Shown here: positions 40,594-55,526 of the stretch, in pieces
How the letters are laid out: every line of letters starts with the position of its first letter
How positions within the stretch are numbered: position 1 is the stretch's first letter
Source: Geminicoccaceae bacterium
Lineage (GTDB): Bacteria; Pseudomonadota; Alphaproteobacteria; Geminicoccales; Geminicoccaceae
Length of the DNA: 64,000 nt
Assembly: GCA_020445645.1 (NCBI GenBank)
Contig: JAGRGG010000020.1
Location: 19,776-83,775, forward strand
Direction: 5' to 3'
Position numbers and translations under genes: made by a program
Notes under the pieces: model-generated
Seen by the model: the letters and a program-made list of their open reading frames with translations, nothing else
What the model was told of the DNA's origin: nothing
Databases searched by the model: none

Positions 40594-41268
40594 ATGCTGA
40601 ACGCGCTGCCGCTGTTCCAGGCGCTCGGACCCGAGGCCCTGCGCCGGCTGCTGAAGGACTCCTTCGCGCGCGGCTACGAGCGCGGGGCCATCCTGTTCTT
40701 TCAGGGCGACGTGGCCGAACGGTTCTACATCGTGCTCGACGGCTGGGTCCGCCTCGTCCGCCACACGCCGGACGGCGGCGAGATCACCCTGGCCGTCTTC
40801 ACCGCCGGCGAGACCCTGGCCGAGGCCGCCGTCCTGGACCTGCACCAGTTTCCCGTCGAGGGTCAGGTCGTGGCGCCGAGCCGCCTCCTCGTCATCCCGG
40901 CCGACGGCTTCCGCGCGTTCCTGCGCGAGGATGCGGCCTTGTGCTTCAGCATCATCGCCGCCCTCTCGCGCCGCCTTCTTTTCTTCCTGCAGAAGATCGA
41001 GCAGCTCTCCACCCGCTCGACGGTGGAACGCACGGCCCAGTTCCTCCTGCGGTTTGCAACCCAAGAGGAGGGTTCCTGCACCGTCCGCCTGCCGCTTGAC
41101 AAGTCGTTGATTGCCGCGCGGCTCGGAATGCAGCCCGAGACCCTGTCGCGCGCGTTCGCCAAGCTGCGCCCCCTGGGCGTCAGGGTCGAGCGCGAGGTCG
41201 TCGTGATCGACGATGTCAAGGCCTTGAGAAGCAGGTTCGCCGAGGGCAATGCCTTGGCGTTGAATTAG
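40594..41268 (+). CDS. nnrR: Crp/Fnr-family transcriptional regulator, NNR/NnrR/Dnr (NO-responsive) type
   Basis: 224 aa. cNMP-like beta-barrel, no N-terminal FNR Cys cluster, C-terminal HTH SLIAARLGMQPETLSRAFAKL (E--SR recognition helix). Confidence 0.85.
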   Translation: MLNALPLFQALGPEALRRLLKDSFARGYERGAILFFQGDVAERFYIVLDGWVRLVRHTPDGGEITLAVFTAGETLAEAAVLDLHQFPVEGQVVAPSRLLVIPADGFRAFLREDAALCFSIIAALSRRLLFFLQKIEQLSTRSTVERTAQFLLRFATQEEGSCTVRLPLDKSLIAARLGMQPETLSRAFAKLRPLGVRVEREVVVIDDVKALRSRFAEGNALALN

Positions 41269-41517
41269 CCTTTCTCGTGATGGATCGCGGCACGATCCGG
41301 CGGACGGGGCGTCGGCCGGATCATCCGGTCGCGTACCGGTTCGGTCGGACGCGCCCCCCGCGTATCGGATCGTCCGCCCTTCGATCCCGAAAGCCCGGAC
41401 AAGGCCGAGGCCGCGTAGCCGAACGGACGAAATCGGTCTAATGAAGGAAGACGGTCGCTGCGGCTCCGCGCGTCGGCGCGGATCGACGACCCAAGAAACA
41501 ACCGATGGGAGAGCACC

Positions 41518-42477
41518 GTGAGCGTTCTTGCGAACCGTTTTCTGTCGGCGCTGGCGCTGACATTCCTGCCCCTGTCGGCCTGGGCCGCCGACGTGGTGAT
41601 CCCCGACCCCAACTACGCCTCCGGCCGCGCCACGGCCTACGCCACGAAGGCGATCGTCGAGGACGCGCTCGGCCTCGAGGTGGAGATGCTCCCGACGACG
41701 GCCGTCCCGGTGATCTTCGAAGCCATGAGCCGCGGCAAGGGCGAGATCGACGTCTGGACGGAGACGTGGCTGCCGAACCAGTCCGGCCCCGTGGACAAGT
41801 ACGTGAAGGGGGACGGCACCGTCGTGCTGGGGGAGAAGTCCTTCCCGGCGAAGCAGGGCTACTGCGTGACCAGGGCGGCCTACGATGCCGGCGTCAAGAC
41901 CGTCTTCGATCTGGCCAACCCGAAGAACGCAGCCCTGTTCGACACCGACGGCGACGGCAAGGGCGAGATCTGGATCGGCGCGCAGGGCTGGCAGTCGACC
42001 AACACCGAGACGATCCGCGCCCGCGACTACGGCTTCGCCGACTTCTTCGAACTCCAGTCCACCGACGAGGCCGTGGCCACGGCCGGGCTCGACGCGGCGG
42101 CGAAGGCCGACAAGCCCTGGGTCGGCTACTGCTATTCGCCGCACCAGAACTTCGCCATCTACGACCTGACGTTCCTGGAGGAGCCCCCGTACAACCCGGC
42201 GGATTTCGTGATGGTCCAGCCCGCCGAAGACCCGGCGTGGAAGGAGAAATCCCACGTCGCCTCGGCCTACGCCGACACGACCGTCCACTTTTCCTGGGCA
42301 AAGTCGCTCGAAGAGCGCCAGCCCCAACTCGTCGCCCTCCTGAAGAACATCCAGTTCTCGGCCGACGACGTGAACACGTGGTCCCTCGACATCGTGAACG
42401 GGGGCGACCCGGACACGATCGCCAGGGACTGGGTCGCGGCGCACCCCGACCTGATGGCCCAGTGGATGGGGCGCTGA
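41518..42477 (+). CDS. Glycine betaine/choline/TMAO-type ABC transporter substrate-binding protein (OpuAC/ProX family; TmoX-like)
   Basis: Signal peptide MSVLANRFLSALALTFLPLSAWA. ProX-type fold with aromatic residues (DVWTETWLPNQ, GYCYSPH). GTG start with a GGGAGAG RBS. Confidence 0.8.
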   Translation: MSVLANRFLSALALTFLPLSAWAADVVIPDPNYASGRATAYATKAIVEDALGLEVEMLPTTAVPVIFEAMSRGKGEIDVWTETWLPNQSGPVDKYVKGDGTVVLGEKSFPAKQGYCVTRAAYDAGVKTVFDLANPKNAALFDTDGDGKGEIWIGAQGWQSTNTETIRARDYGFADFFELQSTDEAVATAGLDAAAKADKPWVGYCYSPHQNFAIYDLTFLEEPPYNPADFVMVQPAEDPAWKEKSHVASAYADTTVHFSWAKSLEERQPQLVALLKNIQFSADDVNTWSLDIVNGGDPDTIARDWVAAHPDLMAQWMGR

Positions 42478-43571
42478 GGGCCAGCCCCCCACCGGACGGT
42501 TCGCGGGCCGGCGACGGGGACGGCCCGGCCGTCCTCCTGGAGAACGTCTGGAAGATCTTCGGGGACCGCGCCGGCGAGGCCCTGAAGGCCGCGCGCGACG
42601 AGGGGCTGCCCAAGTCCGAAATTTTGAGGGATCTTCACTGCGTCGTGGGCGTGGCCGACGCCGGGATCCGCGTCGAGCGGGGCGAGATCTTCTGCGTCAT
42701 GGGCCTGTCGGGCAGCGGCAAGTCGACGCTCCTGCGCCACGTCAACCGCCTCCTGGAGCCGACCGCCGGCAGGGTCCTGGTCCAGGGCCGGGACGTGACG
42801 GCCATGAACGCGGGGCAGTTGCGCGACCTGCGCGCCCGGCGCATCGGGATGGTCTTCCAGAACTTCGCGCTTCTGCCGCACCGCAACGTCCGCGACAACG
42901 TGGCGCTGCCCCTGGAGATCCAGGACGTGGCCCTCAACGAACGCTTCGACCTCGCGGAGGCGGCGCTCGAGAAGGTCGGGCTTTCAGGCTGGGGCGACCG
43001 TTTTCCGGCGAGCCTGTCGGGCGGGATGCAGCAGCGCGTGGGCCTCGCAAGGGCCTTGGCCGCCGACCCGCCGATCCTCCTGATGGACGAGCCGTTCAGC
43101 GCGCTCGACCCCCTGATCCGTCGCCAGTTGCAGGACCAGTTCCTCCACCTGAGCCACGCCATGCAGAAGACGGCGGTCTTCGTCACCCACGACCTCGACG
43201 AGGCGATCCGCATCGGCAACCGCATCGCCATCATGAAGGACGGCGTCATCGTCCAGACCGGCACGCCCGAGGACATCGTCGCCCATCCGCGGGACGATTA
43301 CGTCGCCAGCTTCGTCGCCAACATCTCCCGGCTGCACGTGGTTCACGCGGCCGGGATCATGGAGCCCGTGGCCGCGTTCCGGGGCCGCGCGCCGGGGATC
43401 CCCGACATCGAAGCGTTCCCCAGGGCGAGGGCCGACATGACCATCGCGGAGCTGATCGACCTCGCCGCCGGCGGCACCGACCCCCTGGCGGTGACGGACG
43501 GCGAGGGCCGGACGGTCGGCGTGATCGACAACCGCCGCCTGCTGACGGGCATCAGGGGGGACGCGCGATGA
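42462..43571 (+). CDS. Betaine-type ABC transporter ATP-binding protein (ProV/OpuAA-like) with C-terminal CBS-type domain
   Basis: Walker A GLSGSGKST, signature LSGGMQQRVGLARAL, Walker B ILLMDEPFSALD. There is no in-frame ATG. I propose GTG 42462, which overlaps the SBP gene by 16 nt. Confidence 0.85.
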   Translation: MDGALRASPPPDGSRAGDGDGPAVLLENVWKIFGDRAGEALKAARDEGLPKSEILRDLHCVVGVADAGIRVERGEIFCVMGLSGSGKSTLLRHVNRLLEPTAGRVLVQGRDVTAMNAGQLRDLRARRIGMVFQNFALLPHRNVRDNVALPLEIQDVALNERFDLAEAALEKVGLSGWGDRFPASLSGGMQQRVGLARALAADPPILLMDEPFSALDPLIRRQLQDQFLHLSHAMQKTAVFVTHDLDEAIRIGNRIAIMKDGVIVQTGTPEDIVAHPRDDYVASFVANISRLHVVHAAGIMEPVAAFRGRAPGIPDIEAFPRARADMTIAELIDLAAGGTDPLAVTDGEGRTVGVIDNRRLLTGIRGDAR

Positions 43572-45067
43572 CGGACCACGCCCCGGACGGCCGGTACGCC
43601 GGCCTCGTCCGCGCCTTCGTCGGGCGCGGGGGCGACTACTACGCCGACGCCTTCCGCCGGATCGGCTCGGTCCGGGGGATCGCGTGGCAGATGAACCCCG
43701 CTGCCTTCCTGCTCGGGCCGGTCTGGTGCGCGGCGCGGGCGCTCTGGGGCCTGTTCTGGCCCGCCTTCGTCGTCGAGGTCCTCGCCGTCGTCCTGATCGG
43801 CATCGGCCTGTTCGGCAACCTCGGCGGCGACGAGCTGGTCCGCGCCGAGCGGCTGACCCGGATGGCCGAGGAACGCATGAACGCCGCCGAACGGGCCGGG
43901 GCGGAGGGGAGCGCGCTCGGCGACAGCATGAAGCGTTCCGCCGAGGCCATCGCCGCCTCGGCGGAAGGCGCCCGCGCCAGGGCCGCCCTGGCGGGCGGGA
44001 ACGCGCGGCGCTACTGGATCGGTGGGCTGGCCCTGTTCCTGGGGATCCGGCTCGGCGTCGCCCTTGCCGCGAACGCGGCGCTGGCGCGGCGCTTTCGCAG
44101 GTGGCGCGGCGCCCGCGACCTCCCGCACGGGAAGGGAACCGGGCGGGCGGCCTTCGCGGCGGCGATGGTCGTCTTCTCCTACCCGCTCGCGGTCTACCGC
44201 TTCGCCCTGGGCGAGGCGCCGGATTGGCTCGTCCGGTTCCCGGCCGACCCCGCGACCCGCAACGCGGCCTCGCGCGCCATCGACGGCGCGGTGCGGTGGA
44301 TCGCCGGCACCTTCGACGGGGTCTTCTCCGCGATGACGGCCGGCATCGACGCCGTATTGAACCTGATGGAAACCGCGCTCGTCCTGACGCCCTGGCCGAT
44401 CGTCATGGCGGTGACGCTGGCGCTGGCGTGGCAGGTCTCCGGCCGGCGGGTGGCGATCTTCTCGGCGGCGGCGCTCGCCTATCTCGGCTTCCTCGGCTTT
44501 TGGGAGAAGAGCATGGCGACGGTGGCGCTCCTGGGCACCGCCGCCTTCCTGTGCATCCTGATCGGCATCCCCCTCGGCGTCTGGTGCGGGCGCAGGCCGC
44601 GCGCCTACGCCGCCGTCCGCCCGGCCCTCGACTTCATGCAGACCATGCCGGCCTTCGTCTACCTCATCCCGGTCATCGCCTTCTTCGGCATCGGCAAGCC
44701 GCCCGGCATCATCGCCACCCTGGTCTTCGGGATGCCCCCCGTCATCCGCCTCACGGCGCTCGGCATCGCCGGCGTGCCCGAGGCGATCCGCGAGGCCGCC
44801 ACCGCCTACGGCGCCGACCGGCGCTTTCTGCTCCTCAAGGTCGACCTGCCGCTCGCCATGCCGTCGATCATGACCGGGGTGAACCAGACCCTGCTCATGT
44901 GCCTGTCGATGGTCGTGATCGCGTCGCTCATCGGCGCGAAGGGGCTGGGGGAGGACGTGCTCTCGGCCCTGCAATACGCGGCCGTGGGCCAGGGCATCCT
45001 CGCCGGCGTGGCGATCCTGATGTGCGCCATGGTGCTGGACCGGATCGTCCAGGGCCGCGCTAGCTAA
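43568..45067 (+). CDS. Betaine-type ABC transporter permease (ProW/OpuAB-like) with a ~250-aa N-terminal membrane extension
   Basis: The C-terminal 250 aa form the canonical ProW core (MQTMPAFVYLIPVIAFFGIGKPPGIIATLVFGMPPVIRLT, EAATAYGA). The N-terminal part has extra TM helices plus an Ala/Arg-rich helix. ATGA overlap with the ATPase gene. Confidence 0.85.
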   Translation: MTDHAPDGRYAGLVRAFVGRGGDYYADAFRRIGSVRGIAWQMNPAAFLLGPVWCAARALWGLFWPAFVVEVLAVVLIGIGLFGNLGGDELVRAERLTRMAEERMNAAERAGAEGSALGDSMKRSAEAIAASAEGARARAALAGGNARRYWIGGLALFLGIRLGVALAANAALARRFRRWRGARDLPHGKGTGRAAFAAAMVVFSYPLAVYRFALGEAPDWLVRFPADPATRNAASRAIDGAVRWIAGTFDGVFSAMTAGIDAVLNLMETALVLTPWPIVMAVTLALAWQVSGRRVAIFSAAALAYLGFLGFWEKSMATVALLGTAAFLCILIGIPLGVWCGRRPRAYAAVRPALDFMQTMPAFVYLIPVIAFFGIGKPPGIIATLVFGMPPVIRLTALGIAGVPEAIREAATAYGADRRFLLLKVDLPLAMPSIMTGVNQTLLMCLSMVVIASLIGAKGLGEDVLSALQYAAVGQGILAGVAILMCAMVLDRIVQGRAS

Positions 45068-45839
45068 AGGCCGTTCGACCCTGCGACGCGAACGCCTGCA
45101 GGCGTTCGTGGAACGGGCGGTGGTGGTCCAGGTAGCGCCGCATGTTGGGGTGGCGTTCGGCGAGATCCCGGAAGTCGCGCGCCTGCGCCAGGAGGTCCGC
45201 CTCGGTCAAGGGGCGGATCGAGCGGGAGGCGGCCACGTCCCCGTGCCAGCCCTCGACCTGCGCCCAGTCCGCCGGCGTCCCGCCGTCCCATTCGAAGGCG
45301 CCCGGCACGAAGTCGAGGCCGAACGCCGCCCACAGGGCGCCGATCGTCCCTCGCGGGTCGCGGCGGACGTCCTCCGAGCGCAGCACGAGGGGCGCCTTGC
45401 CGGTCGTCGCCCTCAGCGCGTCGAAGTGCCGCCACTGCGCCTCGATGCCGATCTCCTCGCAGGTGACGTCGGGGTCGAGCTTGAAGTAGGACGCGATCGC
45501 GGCCTGCGGGTCGCGGATCAGAAAGCAGTTCCCGATCCGGCAGGAGAACGCCTCGTCCTCGACGATCCTCGGCACGACGTAGTAGCTCATGTCCTTGAAG
45601 AAGACGGGCCGCGCTTCGGCCCGCCCCAGGATGGAGTCGCGGATCGCCTCGTAGGCGACGGGATGGCCCTCCTGGACCTCGAAATGCGGCATCACCCGGC
45701 ACTTGCGGTGGACGTAGTAGTCGTACATGAAGGGCTCGTGCAGGCAGTCCATGTCGCCCCGCGCGCGCATGACGCGCTCGAACGCCGTCGAGGTGGAGCG
45801 CGGGTGCGACCAGAGGGCGACGATCGGGTGCGCGCTCAT
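45060..45839 (-). CDS. Sulfotransferase-fold (P-loop-like) family protein, function unknown
   Basis: 259 aa. N-terminal LWSHPRSTSTAFERV resembles the 5'-phosphosulfate-binding loop of sulfotransferases, and FLIRDP resembles the 3'-PB region. The ATG overlaps the aminotransferase stop (ATGA). Confidence 0.55.
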   Translation of the reverse strand: MSAHPIVALWSHPRSTSTAFERVMRARGDMDCLHEPFMYDYYVHRKCRVMPHFEVQEGHPVAYEAIRDSILGRAEARPVFFKDMSYYVVPRIVEDEAFSCRIGNCFLIRDPQAAIASYFKLDPDVTCEEIGIEAQWRHFDALRATTGKAPLVLRSEDVRRDPRGTIGALWAAFGLDFVPGAFEWDGGTPADWAQVEGWHGDVAASRSIRPLTEADLLAQARDFRDLAERHPNMRRYLDHHRPFHERLQAFASQGRTAFS

Positions 45840-47146
45840 GCCAGCGCCCCGAACGCGGCGTCGAGCCCTTCGGCCACCGCGTCCACGTCTTCGAGCGCGA
45901 GGCACATCGGCGGCACCATCCGCAGCACCGATTGGAACGGGCCGGACTTGGAGAGGATCAGCCCCTGTTCGCGGCAGTTCTCGAAGACGGCGGCGGTGGT
46001 CTTCGGGTCGGGCTCCTTGGTGGCGCGGTCCTTCACCATCTCGATCGCCAGCATCAGGCCCCGCCCGCGCACGTCGCCGATCGCGGCGTGACGCCCTTGC
46101 AGGTCCTTCAGGCGCGCGAGCAGGGCGGCGCCGACCCGCTTCGCGTTGTCCTGCACCCGGTCCTCGCGGATCACCCGCAAAACGGCGCGGCCGGCGGCGC
46201 AGGAGGTGGGGTTGGCGCCGTAGGTGTGGAACAGGAACTTCTCCGCCATCGGGGCCGCGACCTCCCGGCGCGCGACGACGGCGCCCAGGGGAAAGCCGTT
46301 GCCGATCCCCTTCGCCATCACGACGACGTCGGGGACGACGCCGCCCGCCTCGAAGCCCCACATGTGGTCGCCCGTGCGCCCGAACCCCGACTGGACCTCG
46401 TCCGCGACGTAGAGCCCGCCGGCGGCGCGGACCCGCTCGGCGGCGCCCGACAGGTAGCCGGGCGGCATCTCGACGATCCCGCCGTAGCCCTGCACGCTCT
46501 CGATGAAGATGCCGGCGACGCGCCCCGTGGTGGCGGCGGCGATGGTGCGGTCGATCTCGTCCAGGTAGGGTTGCGTGCCGGCGCCGAAGACGCCCCGGTA
46601 CTGGTTCGGCTCCGCGACGAAGGCGACGTTGCCGGGCATCCCCGGGTGCCGCCAGCCGGCGATCCCGGTGATCGACTGCGCCGCCGCCGTCGGCCCGTGA
46701 TAGGCGGTGCGAAGGGCCAGGAGGTCGAGGTTGCCGGTGAAGGTCCGCGCCATGGTCATCGCAAGGTCGATGGCCTCGGCGCCGGAATTGGTGAAGTGCA
46801 CGACCCAGTCGTGACCCCGGGGCATGGTCGCGGCCAGCTCCTCGGCGAGGTGCGCGGGCGTCGGGTGGTGGAACATCGTCGTGCAGTGGGTGAGTTCCCG
46901 CGCCTGCGCCATCGCGGCCGCGACCACCTCGGGGTGGGCGTGGCCGACCGAGACGCAGACGTTCATCCCCAAAAGGTCGATATAGCGCCGCCCGTCGGCG
47001 TCCCAGAGGTACTGCATCCTGCCCTTCCTGAATACGATCGGGTCCTGGAACGGCACGAACCGGCGCTGCGAGGCCGCGTAGTACCGGTCGCGCCGGGCCG
47101 CCGTCGCGGCCGGCGACCAGTCGGTCTCAAGGGGGGTGGCGCTCAT
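45836..47146 (-). CDS. Class-III PLP-dependent aminotransferase, AGXT2-like (alanine-glyoxylate / omega-amino acid:pyruvate type)
   Basis: 436 aa. Blocks seen: VSVGHAHPEVV, DEVQSGFGRTG, VVMAKGIGNGFPLG (PLP Lys). The N-terminal half resembles AGXT2. Confidence 0.85.
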   Translation of the reverse strand: MSATPLETDWSPAATAARRDRYYAASQRRFVPFQDPIVFRKGRMQYLWDADGRRYIDLLGMNVCVSVGHAHPEVVAAAMAQARELTHCTTMFHHPTPAHLAEELAATMPRGHDWVVHFTNSGAEAIDLAMTMARTFTGNLDLLALRTAYHGPTAAAQSITGIAGWRHPGMPGNVAFVAEPNQYRGVFGAGTQPYLDEIDRTIAAATTGRVAGIFIESVQGYGGIVEMPPGYLSGAAERVRAAGGLYVADEVQSGFGRTGDHMWGFEAGGVVPDVVVMAKGIGNGFPLGAVVARREVAAPMAEKFLFHTYGANPTSCAAGRAVLRVIREDRVQDNAKRVGAALLARLKDLQGRHAAIGDVRGRGLMLAIEMVKDRATKEPDPKTTAAVFENCREQGLILSKSGPFQSVLRMVPPMCLALEDVDAVAEGLDAAFGALA

Positions 47147-47156
47147 CCTTCGCTCC

Positions 47157-49559
47157 TCAGGCTTTCAGCCGCACGTTGCCGGGGTCGTAGGGCGGTTCGG
47201 GCAGGATCCGGGCCGGACGGTCCCTTCCCAGGATCCGCACCCTCAGCCCCTCGCGCGGGGCCGCGGGGCGCAGGTAGGCGAGCGCCAGGGCCTTGCCGGT
47301 CCGGTGGCCGTGGGCGCCCGAGGTGACGATGCCGACGGGATCGCCCCCTGCGATCACCGCGTGGGCGTAGAACGGGTCCACGTCGGCGCCCTCGACCTCG
47401 AGCAGCACCATGTCCCAGGGGTTCGCCCGCGCCAGCATCGCCGCCTTGCCGACGAAGTCGCGCCCTTCGGGCCGCACCAGGAACGACAGGCCGCTCTCCG
47501 GCGGCGTGCGCTCGGTCGTGAGGTCGAGGCCCCAGGCGCGGTAGCCCTTCTCCAGCCGCATCGCGTTGGCGGCGTAGGCGCCGTAGAGGCCGAGCCCCAG
47601 GGGACGGCCCGCCGCCTCCAGGGTCAGGAACAGCGCCGCCGCCCGGTCCCGCGCCACGTGCAATTCCCAGCCGAGTTCGCCGACGTAGGAGACGCGAAGG
47701 GCGCGGACGGGGACGCCCGCGACCGCGATCTCCCGGACCGAGAGCCAGGGAAAGCCGTCCCCCAGGTCCGCGTCGGCGAGCCCGGCCAGCAGCGCCCGCG
47801 ACCTCGGCCCCATGACGCCCACGACGGCGAGGTCCTCGGTACGGTTCGTCACCGTCACGTCGAAGCCCCGGCAGCGGTCGCGCAGCAGGTCCTCGTCCCG
47901 CTCCTCGGCGGCGGCGGCGGAGGTGAGGTAGGCGCGGCCGTCGGCCAGCGCGGCGACGGTGAACTCGGAGGCGACGCCCCCCGCCGGGGTGAGCGCGTGG
48001 ATGAGCCCGACCCGGCCCGGCGCCGGCGCGCGGTTGGCCCCGAGCGCGTTCAGGAAGGGCAAGGCGTCGGGGCCTTCGACCTCGAACTTGGAAAAGACCG
48101 ACAGGTCGGCCAGCGCCACCCGCCCCGCCGCCGCCTCGACCTCGCCCGCCACGGGCGCGAACCAGTCGGTGCGGCGGAAGCTCTCGCGGGCGCGGTCGCC
48201 GGGCCTGTCCGAGAACCAGTTCGGCCGCTCCCAGCCGTGCGCCGCCCCCATCACGGCACCCCGCGCCAGCATCAGGTCGTGCAGGGGCGACAGGCGCAGC
48301 CCGCGCCCGGCGGGGCGCTCCTCGTGGGGGTAATGCACGCCGAACTGCAGGCCGAAGCACTCGACCGCCTTGGCGACCCGGTAGCCGCGCCCGGCCCAGG
48401 CGCCGAACCGGCGGCCGTCCACCGCGAGCGCGTCCATCGGCGGCGCGCCGTGGGTCATCCAGTGGGCCAGGAACCGGCCGGCGCCGCCGCCCTCCATCAC
48501 GCCCATGCTGGACCCCGTCAGCAGCCACGCCCCCGGCAACCCGTGCGCCGGGCCGATCAGCGGGTTGGCGTCGGGGGTGAAGGTGATCGGGCCGTTCACG
48601 ACCGTTTTCAGCCCGCCGCTGCCCAGCGCCGGGATCCGCGCCATCGCCGCCTCGACGATGGGCTCGACGCGGTCGAGGTCGGGCGGCACCAGTTCGGCCC
48701 CGAATTCGGGCGGCACCCCGTCCACCGCCCAGACCTGCGCCTCCCGCTCGTAGGGGCCGAGGATCAGCCCGTCCCGCTCCTGGCGCACGTACCAGCTCTC
48801 CTCGGGGTCGCGGATGATCGGCAGCTCGGGGGCGCCGCTCGCGGTCCGGGCGGCGATTTCGGGCAGGGTGTCGGTGACGAGGTACTGGTGCAGCACCGGG
48901 ACCGAGGGCACGTTGACCCCCATCATCCGCCCGACCTCCCAGCCCCACGTGCCCGCCGCGTTGACCACGTGCCGCGCGCGCATCGTCCCCTTGGCCGTCT
49001 CGACGACCCAGGCCCCGCCTTCCCGCCGGACCGCTTGGACCGGGTTGTACCGTTGAATGACGGCGCCCAGCCCGACCGCCACCCGCGCCATCGCGTTGGT
49101 GGCGAGCGTCGGGTCGACGTGGCCGTCGTCGGGCTCGTGGATCCCGCCCAGGAGCCCGTCGAGCCGCGCCAGCGGGTACAGTTCGGCGATGCGGTCGGGC
49201 GTGAGCAATTTGAGCGGGTGGCCCGTGAAGGCCGAGAGCCCGGCGACGTGGGCGAACTCGTCCATCCGGTCGGGGTTGCGGGTGATCCGCATGGCACCGG
49301 TGCGGTGGAAGCCGCAGCCCTCCCCCGTCTCTTCCGGCAGGATGTCCCGGTAGAGCCGGACCGAGGCCGCCCGCAGTTCCTGGATCGTCGCGTTGTGCGC
49401 GAAGTGGGTGCAGAGCCCCGCCGCGTGCCACGTCGAGCCGTGGGTGAGGTCGTTCTTCTCGACCAGCACGACGTCCCGCCAGCCCGCCTTGGCGAGGTGG
49501 TAGAGGAGCGAGACCCCCATCGCCCCCCCGCCGATGACGACCGCCCGCGCGTCGGTCAT
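47157..49559 (-). CDS. Dimethylglycine/sarcosine dehydrogenase-like FAD oxidoreductase fused to a GcvT/THF-binding domain (paralogue 1)
   Basis: 800 aa. VVIGGGAMGVSLLYHLA FAD fold, HGSTWHAAGL covalent-FAD His motif, C-terminal YVGELGWELHV aminomethyltransferase fold. The ATG overlaps the upstream stop. Confidence 0.85.
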   Translation of the reverse strand: MTDARAVVIGGGAMGVSLLYHLAKAGWRDVVLVEKNDLTHGSTWHAAGLCTHFAHNATIQELRAASVRLYRDILPEETGEGCGFHRTGAMRITRNPDRMDEFAHVAGLSAFTGHPLKLLTPDRIAELYPLARLDGLLGGIHEPDDGHVDPTLATNAMARVAVGLGAVIQRYNPVQAVRREGGAWVVETAKGTMRARHVVNAAGTWGWEVGRMMGVNVPSVPVLHQYLVTDTLPEIAARTASGAPELPIIRDPEESWYVRQERDGLILGPYEREAQVWAVDGVPPEFGAELVPPDLDRVEPIVEAAMARIPALGSGGLKTVVNGPITFTPDANPLIGPAHGLPGAWLLTGSSMGVMEGGGAGRFLAHWMTHGAPPMDALAVDGRRFGAWAGRGYRVAKAVECFGLQFGVHYPHEERPAGRGLRLSPLHDLMLARGAVMGAAHGWERPNWFSDRPGDRARESFRRTDWFAPVAGEVEAAAGRVALADLSVFSKFEVEGPDALPFLNALGANRAPAPGRVGLIHALTPAGGVASEFTVAALADGRAYLTSAAAAEERDEDLLRDRCRGFDVTVTNRTEDLAVVGVMGPRSRALLAGLADADLGDGFPWLSVREIAVAGVPVRALRVSYVGELGWELHVARDRAAALFLTLEAAGRPLGLGLYGAYAANAMRLEKGYRAWGLDLTTERTPPESGLSFLVRPEGRDFVGKAAMLARANPWDMVLLEVEGADVDPFYAHAVIAGGDPVGIVTSGAHGHRTGKALALAYLRPAAPREGLRVRILGRDRPARILPEPPYDPGNVRLKA

Positions 49560-51949
49560 GCCCGCATCCTCTCGCCCTTGGGGTCGAAGGGCGGCCTCGC
49601 CAGCGCCCGCGCCGGATAAAGCCGCCCCGCCACGTCGACCTCGAACCTTCGCTCGCCGGTCCCGGCCAGGGTCTCCCCCGGCGCCACGGCGATCAGGCCG
49701 AGCGCCAAGGTGAGCCCCGTGCGGGCACCCCTCGCACCCGAGGTCGTGGCGCCGACGACGCGGCCCCCTTCCAGGATCGGCTCGTCGTGCAGGATCAGGG
49801 GATGCCCCGCCACGTCGAACAGCACGAGGCGGCGGGTCAACCCCTCCGCCCGCTGCCGCTCCAGGACGGCCTTGCCCTGGAACGGCTTGCCCCAATCGAC
49901 CGCGAAGCCCAGCCCCGCCTCCAGGGGCGTGACCTCGGGGCCGAGGTCGTGGCCCCAGTGCCGGAACCCCTTCTCGATCCGGCAGGAATCGAGCGCGTAG
50001 TGGCCCATCGGCCGGGCGCCGGCGGCGGCGAGCGCGTCGAAGGCCGGGCCGGCGGCGGGGGCGGGGACGGTCAGTTCCCAGCCCAGCTCGCCGACGAAGC
50101 CGAGCCGGGTCGCGGTGCAGGGAACGCCCGCGACCATGACGTCGCGCGCCGTGGAAAAGGCGAAGTCGTTCCAGTCGCCCGGCGACAGGCCCGCCAGCAG
50201 CGCCCGCGCCCCGGCCCCCATGACGCCGAGCACCGCGAAGTCCTCGGTGCGGTCGGCGAGCGTCACCCGCCGCCCGGCCGCCGCGCGCCGCAGCCAAGCC
50301 AGATCCCGCCAGCGGGTCGCGGCCCCGGAGACGAGGCGGAAGCGATCCTCCGCCAGCCGGGTCACGGTCACGTCGGCCTCGATCCCGCCTCCTACGTTCA
50401 GGAGCGGCGTGTAGACGGCCCGGCCGACCGCCACGTCCAGGCCGGCGCAGGCCAGACGGTCGAGGAGCGCGAGGGCGTCGGGTCCGATCACGTCGATCTT
50501 GGTGAAGGGCGAGAGGTCCAGGAGGACAGCCCCCTCCCGCATCACCGCCGCCTCGCGCTCGACGATCCGCCGCCACGGCTGGTCGCCCACCGCGTAGGGG
50601 AGGTCGCGCTCGGCCGCGTCCTTGGCGTACCATAGCCCCCGCTCCCACCCGGCGGTGAGGCCGAAGACGGCCCCTTGCGCCGCCCAGCGGTCGTGCAGCG
50701 CCGACCTTCGCAGGCCCCGCCCGGCCTTGGGCTGCTTGAAAGGCCAGTGCGGCGCGAAGAGGTCCGCCACGGCCTCCGCCATCCGCGCCCGCAGGTGCGC
50801 GGGCGACGCGGCCTTCGGGTCGGCGCGGGCGACGTCGACCTCCCACAGATCCATCGGCGGGTGGCCGTCCACGACCCAGTCGGCCAGCGCCCGGCCGATC
50901 CCGGCCGACGACATGACCCCCACCGAGTTCATGCCCGCGGCGACGTAGAGCCCGTCCACGGCGGGCGTCTCGCCGATCAGCGGGCGGGTGTCGGCGGTGA
51001 AGCCCTCCGGCCCGTTCATGAAATGCTGGATCCCCGCCTCGGCCAAGGACGGCATCAGGGCGAGCGCCGCCTCCATGAAGGAGGCGAACTGGTCCCAGTC
51101 CTCGGGCAGTTCGAGGAAGGGGCGGTCGCCCTCGGGGCCGAAGGCGTCCCAGCACTTGGCGTCGGGCTCGAACCCGCCGATCACGAGCCTGCCGGCGTCC
51201 CCCTTGACGTAGATGCCGGCGTCCAGGTCGCGGACCACCGGGAACGGGTTCGGCAAGCCGGGGATCGGCGCCGTCACCACGTACATGTGCTCGACCGGCT
51301 GGAGCGGCAGGGCGACGCCGGCCTCGTCGGCGAGCGGCTTCGACCACGCCCCGGCGCAGAGCACGACGCGCCCGGCGTCGATCCGGGTCCCGTCCGTCAG
51401 GACCACGCCCCGCGCGCGGCCCCCCTCGACGGCGATTCGCGCCACCCTGGCCCCCTCTTGGATCGTCACCCCGCCGTCCCGCGCGGCGCGGGCGTAGGCC
51501 ATGCAGAGGTCGACCGGGTTGACGCTGCCGTCCTCGGGCACCATCAGCGCGCCGACGTGGGCCGAGAGGTCGAGCCCCGGCACCGCGACGGCCTCGGGCG
51601 GCACGATCTGGGGCATCAGCCCCTGCCTGCGGCCCACGGCGGCGATGCGGCGCAGCTCGTCCATCCGCGCCGCGTCGCGGGCGAGCCAGTAGCCGCCCGT
51701 CCGGCGGTAGCCCGTGCCCATCCCCGTCTCGGCCTCGAGGCGGGGAAACAGCTCCAGCGCGTAGGATGCGAGCCGGGTCATGTTCGCCGTCGCGCGCAAG
51801 GGGCCGACGATCCCGGCCGCGTGCCAGCTCGTGCCCGACGTGAGCGTGTTGCGCTCCAGGAGCAGCACGTCCCCGGCGCCGCGCCGCGCCAGATGGTAGG
51901 CGACGCTCAACCCGACGGCGCCGCCGCCGATGATCAGGATCCTCGCCAT
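49556..51949 (-). CDS. Dimethylglycine/sarcosine dehydrogenase-like FAD oxidoreductase fused to a GcvT/THF-binding domain (paralogue 2)
   Basis: 797 aa. ILIIGGGAVGLSVAYHLA, SGTSWHAAGI, FVGELGWELTV. The ATG overlaps the mttB-family stop. Confidence 0.85.
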   Translation of the reverse strand: MARILIIGGGAVGLSVAYHLARRGAGDVLLLERNTLTSGTSWHAAGIVGPLRATANMTRLASYALELFPRLEAETGMGTGYRRTGGYWLARDAARMDELRRIAAVGRRQGLMPQIVPPEAVAVPGLDLSAHVGALMVPEDGSVNPVDLCMAYARAARDGGVTIQEGARVARIAVEGGRARGVVLTDGTRIDAGRVVLCAGAWSKPLADEAGVALPLQPVEHMYVVTAPIPGLPNPFPVVRDLDAGIYVKGDAGRLVIGGFEPDAKCWDAFGPEGDRPFLELPEDWDQFASFMEAALALMPSLAEAGIQHFMNGPEGFTADTRPLIGETPAVDGLYVAAGMNSVGVMSSAGIGRALADWVVDGHPPMDLWEVDVARADPKAASPAHLRARMAEAVADLFAPHWPFKQPKAGRGLRRSALHDRWAAQGAVFGLTAGWERGLWYAKDAAERDLPYAVGDQPWRRIVEREAAVMREGAVLLDLSPFTKIDVIGPDALALLDRLACAGLDVAVGRAVYTPLLNVGGGIEADVTVTRLAEDRFRLVSGAATRWRDLAWLRRAAAGRRVTLADRTEDFAVLGVMGAGARALLAGLSPGDWNDFAFSTARDVMVAGVPCTATRLGFVGELGWELTVPAPAAGPAFDALAAAGARPMGHYALDSCRIEKGFRHWGHDLGPEVTPLEAGLGFAVDWGKPFQGKAVLERQRAEGLTRRLVLFDVAGHPLILHDEPILEGGRVVGATTSGARGARTGLTLALGLIAVAPGETLAGTGERRFEVDVAGRLYPARALARPPFDPKGERMRA

Positions 51950-53478
51950 CAGTAGTAGTTCACGTCCGGTTTCTCGGCCTTGCGGCGGGCGACGTAGTCC
52001 TGCAACGCGGCGTCGATCGCGGGGTCGAGGCCGGGATCTTCATACGCCTCCAACTGCCGCTTCCACAGCGCGTTGGCCCGCGCCGCCGCGTCGAGGCCCC
52101 CCGCCGCCGCCCACTGCTCGTAGGCGTTGTTGTCGGGGGTCAGGGGGCGGAACAGGGCCGACAGGAAGTTCGCCTGGGTGTGCTCGCTGCCCAGGAAGTG
52201 CCGCCCCGGCCCGGTCGCGGCGATCGCCGCCATCGCCTGCGCGTTCTCGCTCAGGTCGATCCCCTCGAAGAACCGGCCCACCTTGGCGCAGAGGTCGGCG
52301 TCGAGCACCGTCTTCTCGAACGAGGTGACGAGCCCGCCCTCGAGCCAGCCGGTCGCGTGGTTGACGACGTTGGCGCCCGCGAACATCGCCATGAGCAGGC
52401 CCCACGCCGCCTCCTGCTGGCTCTGCCCGTCCGGCACCTTGGAAGCCGAGAGCGTGCCGACCGTGTGCAGCGGCACCCCCAGCCGCCGGGCGAGCTGCCC
52501 CGCCGCCAGCACCATCAGCCCGGCCTCGGGCGTGCCGAAGGTGGGGGCGCCCGACTGCATCGACATCGTCGAGGCGAAGCTGCCCATCAGGCAGGGCGCC
52601 CCGGGGGCGATCAGCTGGACCAATGCCAAGCACGCCATCGCCTCGGCCAGCACCTGCGCCAGCGTGCCGGCCACCGTGCAGGGGCTCATGGCGCCGGTCA
52701 GCACCCAGGGCGTGCAGGCGACGGGCTGGCCCGCCCGGGCGTAGGTCTTAAGGGCGCCCGACATGTGGCTGTCCAGGACCAGGGGCGCGTTGGTGTTGGA
52801 GACGCAGTAGAGCACCGCGTTCTCGGCCACGAAGCCCTCGCCGAAGAGGATCCGCGCCATGTCGAGCGCGTGCCCCGCCCGCTCGGCGCCGATGAAGGCG
52901 CCCATGAAGGCGCGGTCGGACCAGCGGATGTGCGCGTAGAGCATGTCGAGGTGCCGCTTGTTGGCGGGCAGGTCGACGGGCTCGCACACGACGCCGCCCG
53001 AATGGTGCAGGGCCGGGATCGTCTGGTGCAGCCTCACGAGCCGGACGAAGTCGCCGTAGGTCGCGTAGCGCCGCCCTTCATCCAGGTCGTGCACGAAGGG
53101 CGGCCCCCACGAGGGGCAGAGCACCGTGGCGTCGCCGCCGATCCGCACCGCGTTCGCCGGGTTGCGCGCGTGCTGGACGAAGCTCGGCGGCGCCGTGGCC
53201 CGGATGGTCCTGCGGCAGAAGCCGGGGTCGAAGCGGACGCGGGCGTCCCTCACCTCGCAGCCGGCATCGCGGAAGACCGCGAGGATCTCGGGGTCGCCCT
53301 GGAACTCCATCCCGATGTCCCGCAGGATCGCGTCGGCGTTCGCCTCGATCAGCGCGAGCCCTTCTTCCCCCAGCACGTTGAACGTGCCGAGGCGGCGCTG
53401 GATGTAGGGCGCGCGCGGCGCCTCCGTCCGCTCGCGGGCGGCGCTCCGGCGTCGTCTCTGGTGCTCGGGTCGGGACAT
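51949..53478 (-). CDS. MttB-superfamily (trimethylamine methyltransferase family) protein, non-pyrrolysine type
   Basis: 509 aa. The basic N-terminus followed by PYIQRRLGTFNVLGEEGLALIE is typical of bacterial MttB homologues. TIM-barrel length. No in-frame amber codon. ATG 53478 is preferred over 53559. Confidence 0.8.
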   Translation of the reverse strand: MSRPEHQRRRRSAARERTEAPRAPYIQRRLGTFNVLGEEGLALIEANADAILRDIGMEFQGDPEILAVFRDAGCEVRDARVRFDPGFCRRTIRATAPPSFVQHARNPANAVRIGGDATVLCPSWGPPFVHDLDEGRRYATYGDFVRLVRLHQTIPALHHSGGVVCEPVDLPANKRHLDMLYAHIRWSDRAFMGAFIGAERAGHALDMARILFGEGFVAENAVLYCVSNTNAPLVLDSHMSGALKTYARAGQPVACTPWVLTGAMSPCTVAGTLAQVLAEAMACLALVQLIAPGAPCLMGSFASTMSMQSGAPTFGTPEAGLMVLAAGQLARRLGVPLHTVGTLSASKVPDGQSQQEAAWGLLMAMFAGANVVNHATGWLEGGLVTSFEKTVLDADLCAKVGRFFEGIDLSENAQAMAAIAATGPGRHFLGSEHTQANFLSALFRPLTPDNNAYEQWAAAGGLDAAARANALWKRQLEAYEDPGLDPAIDAALQDYVARRKAEKPDVNYY

Positions 53479-53590
53479 CGGCCGTCGCCTTTGCTGCTGC
53501 CCCACCGAGCGTGCCGCCGGCCGCGGCGGCGGGCAACCGGCTTCCTTCAGTAGTAGCATTTCTTATGGTAGGAGGGTGCCGGGAGGCTTC

Positions 53591-54562
53591 ATGCAGGCGC
53601 GGTTCTCGTCTAACGCCAACTTGGTCAAGGCGATGGAGGTCTTCGTCGCCGTGGCCGAGACCGGCCAGATGACGGGTGCCGCGCGCGCCCTCGGCCTCAC
53701 CCAGTCCGCCGTCTCGCAGCACGTCGCCGCCCTGGAGAAGGCCTACGGGGTCCGCCTGTTCGACCGCAGCGTCCGCCCCGCGCGGCTCACCCAGGGCGGC
53801 GCCTTGCTCCTTGGGCACGCGGCGCGGATCCTGCACGCCGTCGCCGACCTCGACACCGGGATGCGCCACCGGGGGCCGCACCCGATCAGCGTGCTCAAGA
53901 TCGGCCTTCTGGCCTCGATCGCCACCACCCTGACGCCGGACTTGGTGGCGCTGGCGCGGGACGGCTTCGGCGTGCAGGACGTGACCCTCCACGCCGGGCA
54001 GAGCGGCCAGCACGAGGCCCTGCTGCGCACCAAGAAAGCCGACATCGCCATCACCTCGAACCCGTTCTACGACATGGACGGGCTGGAGCGGCACCCGGTC
54101 CTGCGCGAATCCTTCCTCCTCGTCCTGCCCGGATCCTACCGGGGACCGCACGGGACGCTCGAAGAGGTGGCGTCCCGCCTGCCGCTGATCCGCTTCGCCG
54201 ACACGACCGGCGTCGGGCGCCAGACCATCCAGCACCTGCGCCGCCTCGACCTCGCCCCGGCCCGCGTCATCCAGGCCGACCGCTCCAGCATGGTGTCCGC
54301 CTGCGTCGCCAGGGGGATGGGGTTCGCGCTGCTGACGCCGAGCCTCCTGATCGACGGCTTCGTCGAGCGGATGCCGGTCCGGATCCTGCCGCTGCCAGTC
54401 GCCCGCGTCTCGCGCACGCTTACCGTCGTCGCCCGCGCGAACAAGCTCGGCCCCTTCCCCGCAAAGGTCGCGGGCCTCGCCCGCAGCAGGCTGACCGACC
54501 AGATTGCAACCCAGATGGGCGAGGCCGGGCTGTCGGCCCTCGCGTTTCCCGAAGACGGCTGA
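53591..54562 (+). CDS. LysR-family transcriptional regulator (divergent from the mttB-family operon)
   Basis: HTH FVAVAETGQMTGAARALGLTQSAVSQHVAALE and a LysR substrate-binding domain. GGGAGG RBS ahead of ATG 53591. Confidence 0.85.
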   Translation: MQARFSSNANLVKAMEVFVAVAETGQMTGAARALGLTQSAVSQHVAALEKAYGVRLFDRSVRPARLTQGGALLLGHAARILHAVADLDTGMRHRGPHPISVLKIGLLASIATTLTPDLVALARDGFGVQDVTLHAGQSGQHEALLRTKKADIAITSNPFYDMDGLERHPVLRESFLLVLPGSYRGPHGTLEEVASRLPLIRFADTTGVGRQTIQHLRRLDLAPARVIQADRSSMVSACVARGMGFALLTPSLLIDGFVERMPVRILPLPVARVSRTLTVVARANKLGPFPAKVAGLARSRLTDQIATQMGEAGLSALAFPEDG

Positions 54563-54937: not shown

Positions 54938-55319
54938 CGGATAGAAAGCATCGCCGGCCGGGAGCGCAGGCGGCGCTACGGTACCGGGCAGAAGCTCAGG
55001 CTGGTCGAGGGTTGAGCCTGGAATGTTCGACGGGCAGCCCCGCATGACGGTCCCGGCGGTCGCACGACGGCACGGGGCACCGCCGAGCCTGCCGTTCGGC
55101 TGGAGGCGTCTGATGTCGGAAGGCGGTCGGGTCGCGGTCAGGGCCGGTGGGGACGTCGTGGCCATCGGCCGCGCCCGCGGGCCGGAGCAGCGGCCGCAGG
55201 AGGCGGAACGCCCGCTCGGCCGCAAGGCCTTGGAAGGCGAGGTGATCGAGGAGGCGCTGGCCGCTGCTCGGGGGGAAAAGCCCGCTTGGCGGTTGCCGTC
55301 GCCCGGCCCGGATCGGGGA
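54938..55319 (+). pseudogene. Remnant of an IS3-family (IS2-like) OrfA transposase gene, disrupted by a stop and a frameshift; no OrfB or terminal repeats
   Basis: RIESIAGRERRRRYGTGQKLRLVEG* continues in another frame as PRMTVPAVARRHGAPPSLPFGWRRL...LGRKALEGEVIEEALAAARGEKPAW..LPSPGPDRG. This parallels IS2 InsC: [35 protein letters not shown]...[30 protein letters not shown]. Confidence 0.5.
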
Positions 55320-55526
55320 CGACAACGAGAACCACCCCCACCGCGGGGCTTGCGGATGCGCTCGCCTCGCGCGTTCATCCGCAGCCGATCGCCACCAGCC
55401 CCGTGTCCCGTTCAACGGGGGCAGCTCCACCTTGCCAAGCGTCCCGCTTTGGGGTCTGACACGGTGCCGACGGCCGGGATTGCCCGGCGCGACGACGCCG
55501 CGGTGCTTCTTGGGAGGCGGATCCTC

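Follow-up and report, generated by a model that had tools for sequence, protein, structure and literature searches.

Several described systems resemble the operon analysed here, which lies in a 64,000-nucleotide stretch from a metagenome-assembled Geminicoccaceae bacterium (GenBank assembly GCA_020445645.1, contig JAGRGG010000020.1, positions 19,776 to 83,775; hereafter the window). The operon encodes a non-pyrrolysine (non-Pyl) MttB-superfamily methyltransferase, two flavoenzymes of the dimethylglycine dehydrogenase/sarcosine dehydrogenase (DMGDH/SARDH) type (DH1 and DH2), a pyridoxal phosphate (PLP) enzyme of the AGXT2 subfamily and a sulfotransferase of the family Sulfotransfer_5. One such system is MtgBCD of Ruegeria pomeroyi and Sinorhizobium meliloti (PMC12478193). 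In the aerobic R. pomeroyi, the MttB-family proteins SPO2108 and SPO2134 are induced on glycine betaine, choline and carnitine. The distally encoded proteins MtgC (cobalamin-binding) and MtgD (pterin-binding) are essential for glycine betaine use and for methionine synthesis; deletion of either mtgC or mtgD abolishes growth on glycine betaine, both proteins are common to the split methionine synthase, and RamA and DUF1638 are co-induced. That MtgB works with distal MtgC and MtgD was shown in part by genetics and in part proposed from proteomics (Mausz et al. 2025, PMC12478193). Genomes may carry up to seven MttB paralogues with unknown substrates, probably other methylated compounds (PMC12478193). 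The window operon is like this system in pairing a non-Pyl MttB-family subunit with DMGDH/SARDH-type demethylations in an aerobic or denitrifying alphaproteobacterium, and, as in R. pomeroyi, in encoding MttB away from MtgC/MtgD-type partners. Unlike it, the window has what is probably a different MttB paralogue (~54% identity to S. meliloti MtgB) in a conserved operon of its own with an AGXT2-type enzyme and a sulfotransferase, and the substrate is probably not glycine betaine.

A second parallel is the MthK-MthBCA system of Eubacterium limosum, in which MthB demethylates phosphocholine but not choline, and the co-localised kinase MthK supplies the ester. All earlier-known MttB substrates bear an acidic group, and the methyl acceptor of each MttB-family enzyme characterised so far is a corrinoid protein (Jiang et al. 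2025, PMC12155760). Both loci pair an MttB-family enzyme genetically with a hydroxyl-esterifying enzyme, and for both a logic of activation followed by demethylation can be proposed. In the window, however, the activator would be a sulfotransferase of the type that uses 3'-phosphoadenosine-5'-phosphosulfate (PAPS), joined in five related loci by an APH-family kinase, rather than a choline kinase. The host is aerobic or denitrifying, the corrinoid and tetrahydrofolate (THF) components lie outside the cluster, and demethylation would run to the primary amine instead of stopping at dimethylaminoethanol.

The remaining parallels concern single steps. AGXT2-like PLP enzymes are coupled to hydroxyl-esterifying enzymes in kinase/phospho-lyase pairs (ethanolamine kinase/ETNPPL, hydroxylysine kinase/PHYKPL, PRK06148/PRK06149, A1RDF1), but here the partner is a sulfotransferase, and the PLP enzyme lacks three residues common to both solved phospholyases. 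As in the classical glycine betaine route (DMGDH, then SARDH or SoxBDAG), the operon has two fused DAO-GcvT flavoenzymes with the histidine motif for covalent flavin adenine dinucleotide (FAD) and a THF-binding domain; unlike in that route, DH1 and DH2 are only ~35–40% identical to family members found on plasmids and are embedded with genes that a glycine pathway does not need. Sulfotransferases that install a sulfate for later use, for example as a leaving group, are known from CurM, olefin synthase (OLS) and LGS1, and the window protein has a similar fold (Foldseek matches 4GBM, 4GOX and 22GA). Those enzymes, however, are biosynthetic, act on acyl-carrier-bound or terpenoid substrates and share at most 19% identity with it, and a catabolic role would be new. 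Each protein family and the demethylation logic are already known, and the literature searched held no description of an AGXT2-subfamily last step in such an operon, nor of a PAPS-type sulfotransferase embedded in a catabolic amine pathway.

We conclude that the five genes probably form a single operon under LysR control, which serves to demethylate an imported quaternary ammonium compound completely at its nitrogen and to deaminate it. The neighbouring ABC system would import the amine. MttB would transfer methyl 1 onto a distal MtgC-type corrinoid protein, with an MtgD-type methyl-cobalamin:THF methyltransferase passing it on and RamA/DUF1638 providing reactivation. The two DMGDH-type flavoenzymes would oxidatively strip methyls 2 and 3, delivering the one-carbon (C1) units to THF, and the PLP enzyme would take off the remaining primary amino group. 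A stepwise line of this kind had been put forward in an initial annotation of the stretch, and the domains found and the conservation of the module support it. The analysis shows directly which genes are present, how the operon is built, that it is conserved and to which families or folds its products belong; we infer all substrates, the order of the steps and the distal corrinoid use in this organism.

Operon layout and conservation

The operon and its immediate neighbours in the window, which is ~72% G+C, are as follows.

53591..54562, plus strand: LysR-family transcriptional regulator, 323 aa (Pfam HTH_1 and LysR_substrate), divergent from the operon
53479..53590, no strand: LysR/MttB control region, 112 bp, divergent intergenic, with a partly conserved ACCAT(A/T)AGAA..CTA element
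51949..53478, minus strand: non-pyrrolysine MttB-superfamily methyltransferase, 509 aa (PF06253), proposed to remove methyl 1 from a quaternary amine
49556..51949, minus strand: DH1, DMGDH/SARDH-type FAD/THF-dependent N-demethylase 1, 797 aa (DAO, FAO_M, GCV_T and GCV_T_C)
47157..49559, minus strand: DH2, DMGDH/SARDH-type FAD/THF-dependent N-demethylase 2, 800 aa (DAO, FAO_M, GCV_T and GCV_T_C)
45836..47146, minus strand: AGXT2-subfamily class-III PLP enzyme, 436 aa (PF00202), putative omega-aminotransferase or elimination lyase acting on the fully demethylated amine
45060..45839, minus strand: Sulfotransfer_5 PAPS-type sulfotransferase, 259 aa (PF19798, predicted fold, motifs)
41518..45067, plus strand: OpuAC-type ABC importer (substrate-binding protein 41518–42477, ATPase 42462–43571, permease 43568–45067), convergent with the operon

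The junctions, read directly from the sequence, are tight. MttB and DH1 overlap by one nucleotide at 51949 (TGATG), DH1 and DH2 by four (ATGA, 49556–49559), and the PLP and sulfotransferase genes by four (ATGA, 45836–45839), while DH2 and the PLP gene are separated by a 10-nt gap, GGAGCGAAGG (47147–47156), with a Shine-Dalgarno-like GGAG. The initial annotation had placed the five minus-strand genes, their overlaps and the gap exactly so, with a LysR gene divergent at 53591, and independent gene calls on identical metagenome contigs matched all five products and the LysR protein. DH2 is taken to start at 49559 because the ATGA overlap and the independent gene calls agree on it. The same annotation had put a betaine-type importer directly next to the operon; the adjacency holds, but the importer is a separate transcription unit, since it is convergent and its stop codon overlaps the 3' end of the sulfotransferase gene by 8 nt on the opposite strand. 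We found no promoter-like sites, and the two terminator-like sites are no excess over the 1.8 expected from shuffling.

High G+C content yields spurious long open reading frames (ORFs), so ORF length is unreliable in the window and GC3 periodicity (at third codon positions) was used to choose frames. A 1396-aa ORF at 47157–51347 on the minus strand, running in the DH2 frame through DH1, is such an artefact. Another very long spurious ORF, of 1390 aa, lies at 38320–42492.

A LysR homologue stands beside the cluster in most related loci. Alignment of the LysR/MttB intergenic region with five Hyphomicrobiales loci revealed an element of dyad character that reads ACCATAAGAAATGCTA in the window and ACCATTAGAAGTCCTAAT in relatives (L022, L036, L045 and L048; L numbers denote related loci) and is a candidate LysR operator.

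We examined conservation, a check that the initial annotation had proposed, in two independently seeded sets. For 80 genome loci seeded on the sulfotransferase alone, neighbours were counted within 10 kb: at least one of the four other genes was present in 44 loci and all four in 27, and 12 had the identical order LysR<->MttB-DH1-DH2-PLP enzyme-sulfotransferase on one strand. Carriers of the exact order include Aestuariivirga, Rhizobiaceae, Bradyrhizobiaceae and other Hyphomicrobiales. The Rhodobacteraceae version is rearranged (PLP-MttB <- LysR -> DH1-DH2-sulfotransferase, often followed by the same importer), and an Arenicellales gammaproteobacterium (L078) has all five genes. Another 80 metagenome loci were seeded on the PLP enzyme; a Sulfotransfer_5 gene stood beside the cluster in 10 of the 12 that had enough flank to judge. 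The sulfotransferase gene takes at least four positions in these loci: behind the PLP gene in the same orientation, facing it convergently, behind DH2, or placed between MttB and DH1 but in the opposite orientation. Identities across related loci are 67–74% for DH1 and 64–84% for the PLP enzyme. The cluster thus occurs in Geminicoccales, Rhodobacterales, Hyphomicrobiales and Arenicellales, and the five-gene arrangement is far beyond chance. Cultured strains that carry it include Aestuariivirga litoralis KCTC 52945, Paracoccus sp. S-4012, Defluviimonas denitrificans DSM 18921, Roseovarius pelagicus and Tabrizicola soli. Neighbour conservation that persists through rearrangement is strong evidence that the sulfotransferase is functionally linked to the cluster.

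De novo clustering of the ORFs in these loci added as recurrent partners a short-chain dehydrogenase/reductase (SDR), a PAPS synthase, a TmoX-like ABC system, a GerE-type regulator and the APH kinase. Sulfatase, aldehyde dehydrogenase, Xsc and carnitine genes were not recurrent in it. Orthologues of the importer, 65–73% identical, accompany the cluster in L001, L018, L025, L050, L061, L062, L069, L148, L154 and L163.

The proteins and their partners

Pfam searches, again a check suggested earlier, matched MTTB, DAO/GCV_T, Aminotran_3 and Sulfotransfer_5 in the respective products. MttB aligned with PF06253 over residues 8–503 (646 bits; profile positions 5–499 of 500). Its 509-codon ORF is uninterrupted, with no in-frame amber codon, and scored 231 bits against the Pyl-type trimethylamine methyltransferase model TIGR02369 (cut-off 525); the best PDB matches were 4YYC (567 bits) and the Desulfitobacterium hafniense protein 2QNE (342 bits). 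It shares 73–84% identity with the cluster MttB of Hyphomicrobiales and ~54% with S. meliloti MtgB. The MttB proteins of the cluster fall into two clades, one comprising the window and Hyphomicrobiales proteins and the other, at 52–55% identity, those of Rhodobacteraceae. Both clades and S. meliloti MtgB are roughly equidistant from one another (~53–54% for the window MttB), so the window protein is probably not simply MtgB, a possibility the initial annotation had raised. Its genomic neighbours (PLP enzyme, sulfotransferase and, in some loci, APH kinase) do not tie it to glycine betaine catabolism.

In S. meliloti, MtgB lies beside mtgC, mtgD, ramA and bmt. The scanned ORFs of the window, all but a few short ones, had no B12-binding, pterin-binding/MtrH, RamA or DUF1638 domain, and with S. 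meliloti MtgC, MtgD, DUF1638, RamA and MetF as queries we found no homologue in the window or in ~170 related loci. For the ORFs examined it is therefore true, as had been stated, that the 64 kb encode no corrinoid protein, corrinoid:THF methyltransferase or activase. We also considered R. pomeroyi MtgB1 and MtgB2 as members of this cluster type, and their location as orphan genes ruled this out. The absence of a corrinoid partner in cis is expected rather than anomalous, because the partners in R. pomeroyi are distal and shared. The parsimonious reading is that the window MttB would likewise use a shared distal corrinoid system, and this explanation would largely remove the surprise around a partnerless MttB. 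The premises that characterised non-Pyl MttB proteins come only from anaerobes with dedicated partners, and that no role is established in aerobes, have been overtaken by the R. pomeroyi work (PMC12478193).

That MttB is truly independent of a corrinoid protein and passes its methyl group directly to THF, free cobalamin or another acceptor is very improbable. The lack of corrinoid, pterin-binding and activase genes in the window and the ~170 loci would agree with it, but MtgB1 and MtgB2 likewise have no partners in cis in R. pomeroyi, where deletion of the distal mtgC or mtgD abolishes growth on glycine betaine (PMC12478193), and every characterised member of the family methylates a corrinoid protein (PMC12155760).

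Both enzymes of about 800 aa have the (S/T)WHAAG motif and the C-terminal GcvT fold ascribed to them earlier: DH1 reads TSWHAAG (His43), DH2 reads STWHAAG (His45), and Pfam identified GCV_T and GCV_T_C in each. The histidine of this motif carries 8-alpha-FAD in DMGDH, and by analogy His43 and His45 probably carry covalent FAD here. The best PDB matches of DH1 were rat and human dimethylglycine dehydrogenase (4PAB and 5L46, ~398 bits). Neither DH1 nor DH2 reached an NCBIfam equivalog. We dropped an attempt to assign DH2 from plasmid-borne members, including the enzymes of the Arthrobacter nicotine plasmid, as all were at most 40% identical and uninformative.

The PLP enzyme matched PF00202 (Aminotran_3) with 290 bits. 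Its best NCBIfam matches were the PLP domains of the APH-aminotransferase fusions PRK06148 and PRK06149 (~385 bits), and its best PDB matches were human ethanolamine-phosphate phospho-lyase (6TOR, 287 bits) and the Arthrobacter phospholyase A1RDF1 (5G4I, 233 bits), with GABA (gamma-aminobutyrate) aminotransferase below both (208 bits). Lys279 in VVMAKGIGNG aligned with the PLP-lysine region of 6TOR and 5G4I. The earlier label of an AGXT2-like aminotransferase agrees with our assignment to the class-III PLP enzymes and with the transaminase-type motifs discussed below.

The sulfotransferase, which is 100% identical to the NCBI protein KDG89_02900, matched PF19798 (Sulfotransfer_5) with 52.3 bits (cut-off 23.2) and had no PDB sequence match at E<=1 and no NCBIfam match. 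Its AlphaFold2 (AF2) model (pLDDT 89) gave Foldseek matches with probability 1.0 and TM-scores of 0.4–0.53 to TPST2 with bound 3'-phosphoadenosine-5'-phosphate (PAP), CurM ST, 3-OST and Stf0, and also matched OLS ST. Invariant across 13 orthologues are HPRSxST (H12-P13-R14-S15-x-S17-T18), HEPF, R109, P111 and S117. HPRSxST probably forms the phosphosulfate loop; the H34-E35 pair, 21 residues past it, would supply the catalytic base, and R109, P111 and S117, which stand within RDPxxxxxS in the window, would form the 3'-phosphate motif. Beside the catalytic pair, the loop HEPFMY(D/F/Y/H)(Y/H)Y is common to the cluster sulfotransferases and absent from Streptomyces homologues; this aromatic and acidic loop, for instance HEPFMYDYY, would suit a cationic acceptor.

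The neighbourhood of the sulfotransferase gene in other genomes is consistent with this. In L002 (Roseovarius pelagicus) it adjoins a bifunctional ATP sulfurylase/adenosine 5'-phosphosulfate kinase (NF004040, 1035 bits, cut-off 669) and a CysQ PAP phosphatase (TIGR01331, 260 bits, cut-off 229). By tblastn, a PAPS-synthase homologue stands directly beside it in L008, L050, L061, L062 and L069 (in the first three codirectional, between transporter and sulfotransferase), and a CysQ homologue in L004. Streptomyces homologues, at 35–38% identity, lie in nonribosomal peptide synthetase (NRPS) clusters, one with cysC/cysD. The PAPS synthase and CysQ neighbours and the Streptomyces contexts indicate that the family comprises real PAPS-dependent small-molecule sulfotransferases. 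The sulfotransferase fold proposed initially is borne out by PF19798, by the structural matches to PAP-bound enzymes and by the motifs, and we regard the window protein as a genuine PAPS-type sulfotransferase, whose sulfation of an acceptor is predicted from genetic association. As the initial annotation had said, the role of the family is not established: the literature searched held no characterised PF19798 member. A plasmid search for the sulfotransferase in model Alphaproteobacteria returned only distant Streptomyces and cyanobacterial homologues.

The gene also recurs in other settings, whose common denominator is quaternary-amine catabolism. In L022, L036, L042, L051 (about 10795–12430) and L095, four of which have the exact five-gene order, the sulfotransferase is followed by a 184-aa ORF of no known family and then by an APH-family kinase, whose best PDB match is 6EF6 and which weakly resembles the kinase domain of the PRK06149 fusions. 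A different operon, MttB (33–34% identical)-DMGDH-like-CMD-sulfotransferase (about 5100–10750), occurs in L030, L044, L060 and L064, metagenome-assembled genomes of Arenicellales and an unclassified gammaproteobacterium. It associates the sulfotransferase family with demethylation begun by MttB a second time and independently. Upstream of it, L030 has genes for an iron-type alcohol dehydrogenase, a DAO oxidase and an OYE/Pyr_redox amine dehydrogenase-like protein; the alcohol dehydrogenase gene is ~3.6 kb away, with two amine-oxidoreductase genes on the opposite strand in between.

In L083 (Tropicibacter) and L085 (Leisingera), around position 10001, a lone sulfotransferase gene follows an AraC (GbdR-like) or LysR regulator, among hydroxyproline-betaine-like neighbours (MR_MLE epimerase-like, DHDPS-like, aldehyde dehydrogenase, GntR). 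In L083 a DAO gene and an MttB paralogue are further neighbours, and in L085 a TorS/TorR pair with a TmoX-like importer lies nearby. In the marine metagenome loci L122, L124, L125, L127 and L128, a divergent sulfotransferase paralogue (35–38%) and an SDR form a two-gene unit convergent on the PLP gene; sulfotransferase and SDR seem to travel together.

A second OpuAC-type importer, with a ~670-aa permease, stands beside the sulfotransferase in L002 (5555–9700), L008, L015, L017, L040, L053, L057, L061–L063, L066, L068 and L069. In most of these loci it diverges from the sulfotransferase gene; in L008, L057 and L061 it precedes that gene in the same direction. The substrate-binding protein from L002, the only one compared, resembles the R. 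pomeroyi trimethylamine N-oxide (TMAO)-binding TmoX (4XZ6, 219 bits), and the ligand of this importer may be the acceptor of the sulfotransferase. O-sulfation of TMAO itself, considered on account of the TmoX-like importer beside many sulfotransferase genes, was rejected as chemically implausible. We also rejected a sulfotransferase running in reverse to conserve energy from a sulfate ester, on thermodynamic grounds and because an adjacent CysQ pulls the reaction forward.

Candidate substrates and the possible place of sulfation

We tentatively propose that the operon handles a choline-type amino alcohol, a hydroxyl-bearing compound that is most probably choline or its ester, as the O-sulfate; this strikes us as plausible, if short of probable. 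A hydroxyl-bearing substrate is suggested because of the APH kinase beside the cluster, and the alcohol dehydrogenase points the same way more weakly. With PAPS, the sulfotransferase would convert choline to choline-O-sulfate, an acidic zwitterion that fits an MttB-family active site. Imported choline-O-sulfate could also enter directly, which would explain the cluster versions without a sulfotransferase. Demethylation would then lead through N,N-dimethyl-ethanolamine-O-sulfate and N-methyl-ethanolamine-O-sulfate to ethanolamine-O-sulfate, which corresponds, with sulfate in place of phosphate, to what the closest solved relative of the PLP enzyme acts on; from it the PLP enzyme would either eliminate sulfate, yielding acetaldehyde, ammonium and sulfate, or transfer the amino group. 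The earlier suggestion of a sulfated substrate or intermediate gains support in that a genuine PAPS-type sulfotransferase is genetically tied to the cluster. Taken as one chain, from PAPS-dependent O-sulfation of choline or a related amino alcohol by Sulfotransfer_5, through MttB and the two DMGDH-type demethylations, to PLP-dependent splitting of ethanolamine-O-sulfate into acetaldehyde, ammonium and sulfate, the proposal is doubtful. The literature searched held no account of this operon, of a bacterial choline sulfotransferase or of choline-O-sulfate demethylation.

Several observations weigh against handling choline as its sulfate. Activation with PAPS is costly, an expense spared by the oxidation of choline to glycine betaine that is usual in these bacteria. 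The PLP enzyme reads GMNVCVSVGH, KGIGNGFP and SVLR where 6TOR and 5G4I read NNVxHVGH, KPMGNGHP and NVLK; the arginine of VLR binds the keto-acid carboxylate in class-III transaminases such as GABA aminotransferase. A presumed human AGXT2 sequence shares the window versions of all three motifs and scores 320 bits, versus 284 bits for ETNPPL. A clean lyase role is therefore not favoured, because the enzyme has transaminase-type residues at the three motifs, and transaminase is the activity that the sequence favours. On this residue-level comparison we downgraded a clear phospho- or sulfo-lyase, which the best PDB matches had suggested, to a possible one. On chemical grounds the enzyme could still act as a lyase on a sulfate ester: a PLP carbanion beside a sulfate ester tends to eliminate sulfate, which is the basis of GABA-aminotransferase inactivation by ethanolamine-O-sulfate. 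Moreover, the SDR that often accompanies the sulfotransferase is 3-hydroxybutyrate-dehydrogenase-like and would fit a beta-hydroxy acid such as carnitine better than a choline ester. The core genes (LysR, MttB, DH1, DH2 and PLP enzyme) also occur without the sulfotransferase, on a Mesorhizobium plasmid (L091) and in L098 and L152; some contigs of this kind keep the same importer, and the link between sulfotransferase and cluster is not obligatory. PAPS synthase is adjacent in six loci only and could be a housekeeping copy, and nothing in the literature searched ties the cluster to any substrate.

Three other classes of substrate have to be weighed against choline-O-sulfate. A betaine without a hydroxyl, such as beta-alanine betaine, gamma-butyrobetaine or taurine betaine, would lose its methyl groups to give an omega-amino acid or sulfonate, which the AGXT2-type enzyme would then transaminate, leaving the sulfotransferase a side job (choline-O-sulfate as osmolyte or sulfur store, or modification of a by-product). 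The transaminase-type motifs, with their arginine for a keto-acid carboxylate, would suit such a route, as would the complete core cluster lacking a sulfotransferase and the lone sulfotransferase beside other betaine clusters (L083, L085), and the DMGDH family is known to include enzymes for longer N-methyl amino acids, such as 4-methylaminobutyrate oxidase. However, the sulfotransferase gene has stayed with the cluster in at least four rearranged forms and is coupled to it translationally, PAPS synthase is embedded between transporter and sulfotransferase in L008, L050 and L061, and a hydroxyl is indicated by the APH kinase of five loci as well; we consider a hydroxyl-free substrate unlikely. 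Somewhat more unlikely still is a carnitine-type compound, which MttB, DH1 and DH2 would convert to 4-amino-3-hydroxybutyrate; sulfation of the 3-hydroxyl would let the PLP enzyme eliminate sulfate and ammonia to give succinate semialdehyde, a sulfate counterpart of hydroxylysine kinase and 5-phosphohydroxylysine phospho-lyase. Versions without a sulfotransferase would take gamma-butyrobetaine and end in plain GABA transamination, which would account for its facultative presence. We know of no sulfation-then-elimination reaction of this kind.

MttB-family enzymes for carnitine and gamma-butyrobetaine do exist in E. limosum (PMC8604678, PMC12155760). In addition, the ATGA coupling of the PLP and sulfotransferase genes, seen in the window and in 12 genomes, resembles the fusion of APH kinase and PLP enzyme in PRK06148 and PRK06149, the SDR is most like 3-hydroxybutyrate dehydrogenases and hence enzymes of beta-hydroxy acids, and AGXT2-type transaminase motifs fit omega-amino acids. 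Yet no carnitine-specific gene (CaiX-like binding protein, carnitine dehydrogenase, BKACE) recurs in the loci, the importer's binding protein is close to no characterised one, the Rhodobacteraceae sulfotransferase follows DH2 rather than the PLP gene, and carnitine is already carboxylated, so that sulfation would be needed only at the last step. Glycine betaine, the example given initially, in which MtgB, dimethylglycine dehydrogenase and sarcosine dehydrogenase would lead to glycine and a glycine:pyruvate or glycine:glyoxylate transamination, now appears the least likely of the three. The domain content matches the classical route, DH1 is closest in the PDB to dimethylglycine dehydrogenases, the importer is OpuAC-type, and AGXT2 is an alanine:glyoxylate aminotransferase. 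Against this, the window MttB is no nearer to S. meliloti MtgB (~54%) than to the second cluster clade (~53–54%), in R. pomeroyi the MtgB1 and MtgB2 that glycine betaine induces are encoded by orphan genes, soxBDAG for sarcosine, with soxD and soxG as probable members, is already present in the window, glycine catabolism needs no transaminase, and the route has no role for the sulfotransferase, the PAPS synthase or the APH kinase.

Genomic surroundings and implications

Scanning the main window ORFs against Pfam revealed a methylated-amine island at 1965–16604, which places the operon in a part of the genome dedicated to methylamine and C1 metabolism. The features outside the operon are as follows.

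1965–5867: DmmA-like and HODM/DmmC-like (dimethylamine monooxygenase type) genes (Pfam sweep)
6262 to ~11400: soxB, soxA and probable soxD/soxG (Pfam sweep)
12210–16604: N-methylglutamate synthase-like and gamma-glutamylmethylamide synthetase-like (glutamine synthetase homologue) genes (Pfam sweep)
19609–41268: complete-looking denitrification block with nnrS, cytochrome c, norD/norQ/norB/norC-like genes and NnrU
within 19609–41268: nirS and d1-haem genes (nirE, nirF, nirN, nirJ, NirDL type) and a NosR/NirI-like gene

The island also has a GcvT-like gene and an HTH-cupin regulator, and an Fnr/Crp regulator lies directly upstream of the betaine-type importer. The importer matched OpuAC, ABC_tran and BPD_transp_1 in Pfam. 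Its substrate-binding protein is remote from ChoX, ProX and OpuAC (E=3e-8 to ChoX) and scored 75 bits against the NCBIfam choline-binding model (cut-off 379); we dropped an inference of the ligand from this protein, as it is too remote from ChoX, ProX, OpuAC and TmoX. Three coding-looking ORFs (55023–57266, 57251–58030 and 62081–63298) show strong GC3 periodicity and no Pfam match; in the first of them, first codon positions are exceptionally rich in G+C.

Choline, its esters, carnitine and betaines are major currencies of carbon, nitrogen and energy in soil and sea, and MttB-family genes are among the most numerous unassigned genes for methylated-amine turnover. The cluster gives one paralogue a defined and widely conserved context, and the cultured carriers make its function directly testable. 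If sulfation does not belong to the pathway, the locus would still be a useful, ordinary example of an MttB operon with distal partners. If it does, the organic nitrogen, C1/folate, cobalamin and sulfur cycles would be joined in a single operon, Sulfotransfer_5 would gain its first function and bacteria their first choline sulfotransferase. There would then be a route for choline-O-sulfate that bypasses both sulfatase and glycine betaine, and a first case of sulfation as an activating step in catabolism, and the "esterify, then demethylate" logic of a gut anaerobe would extend to aerobic environmental bacteria.

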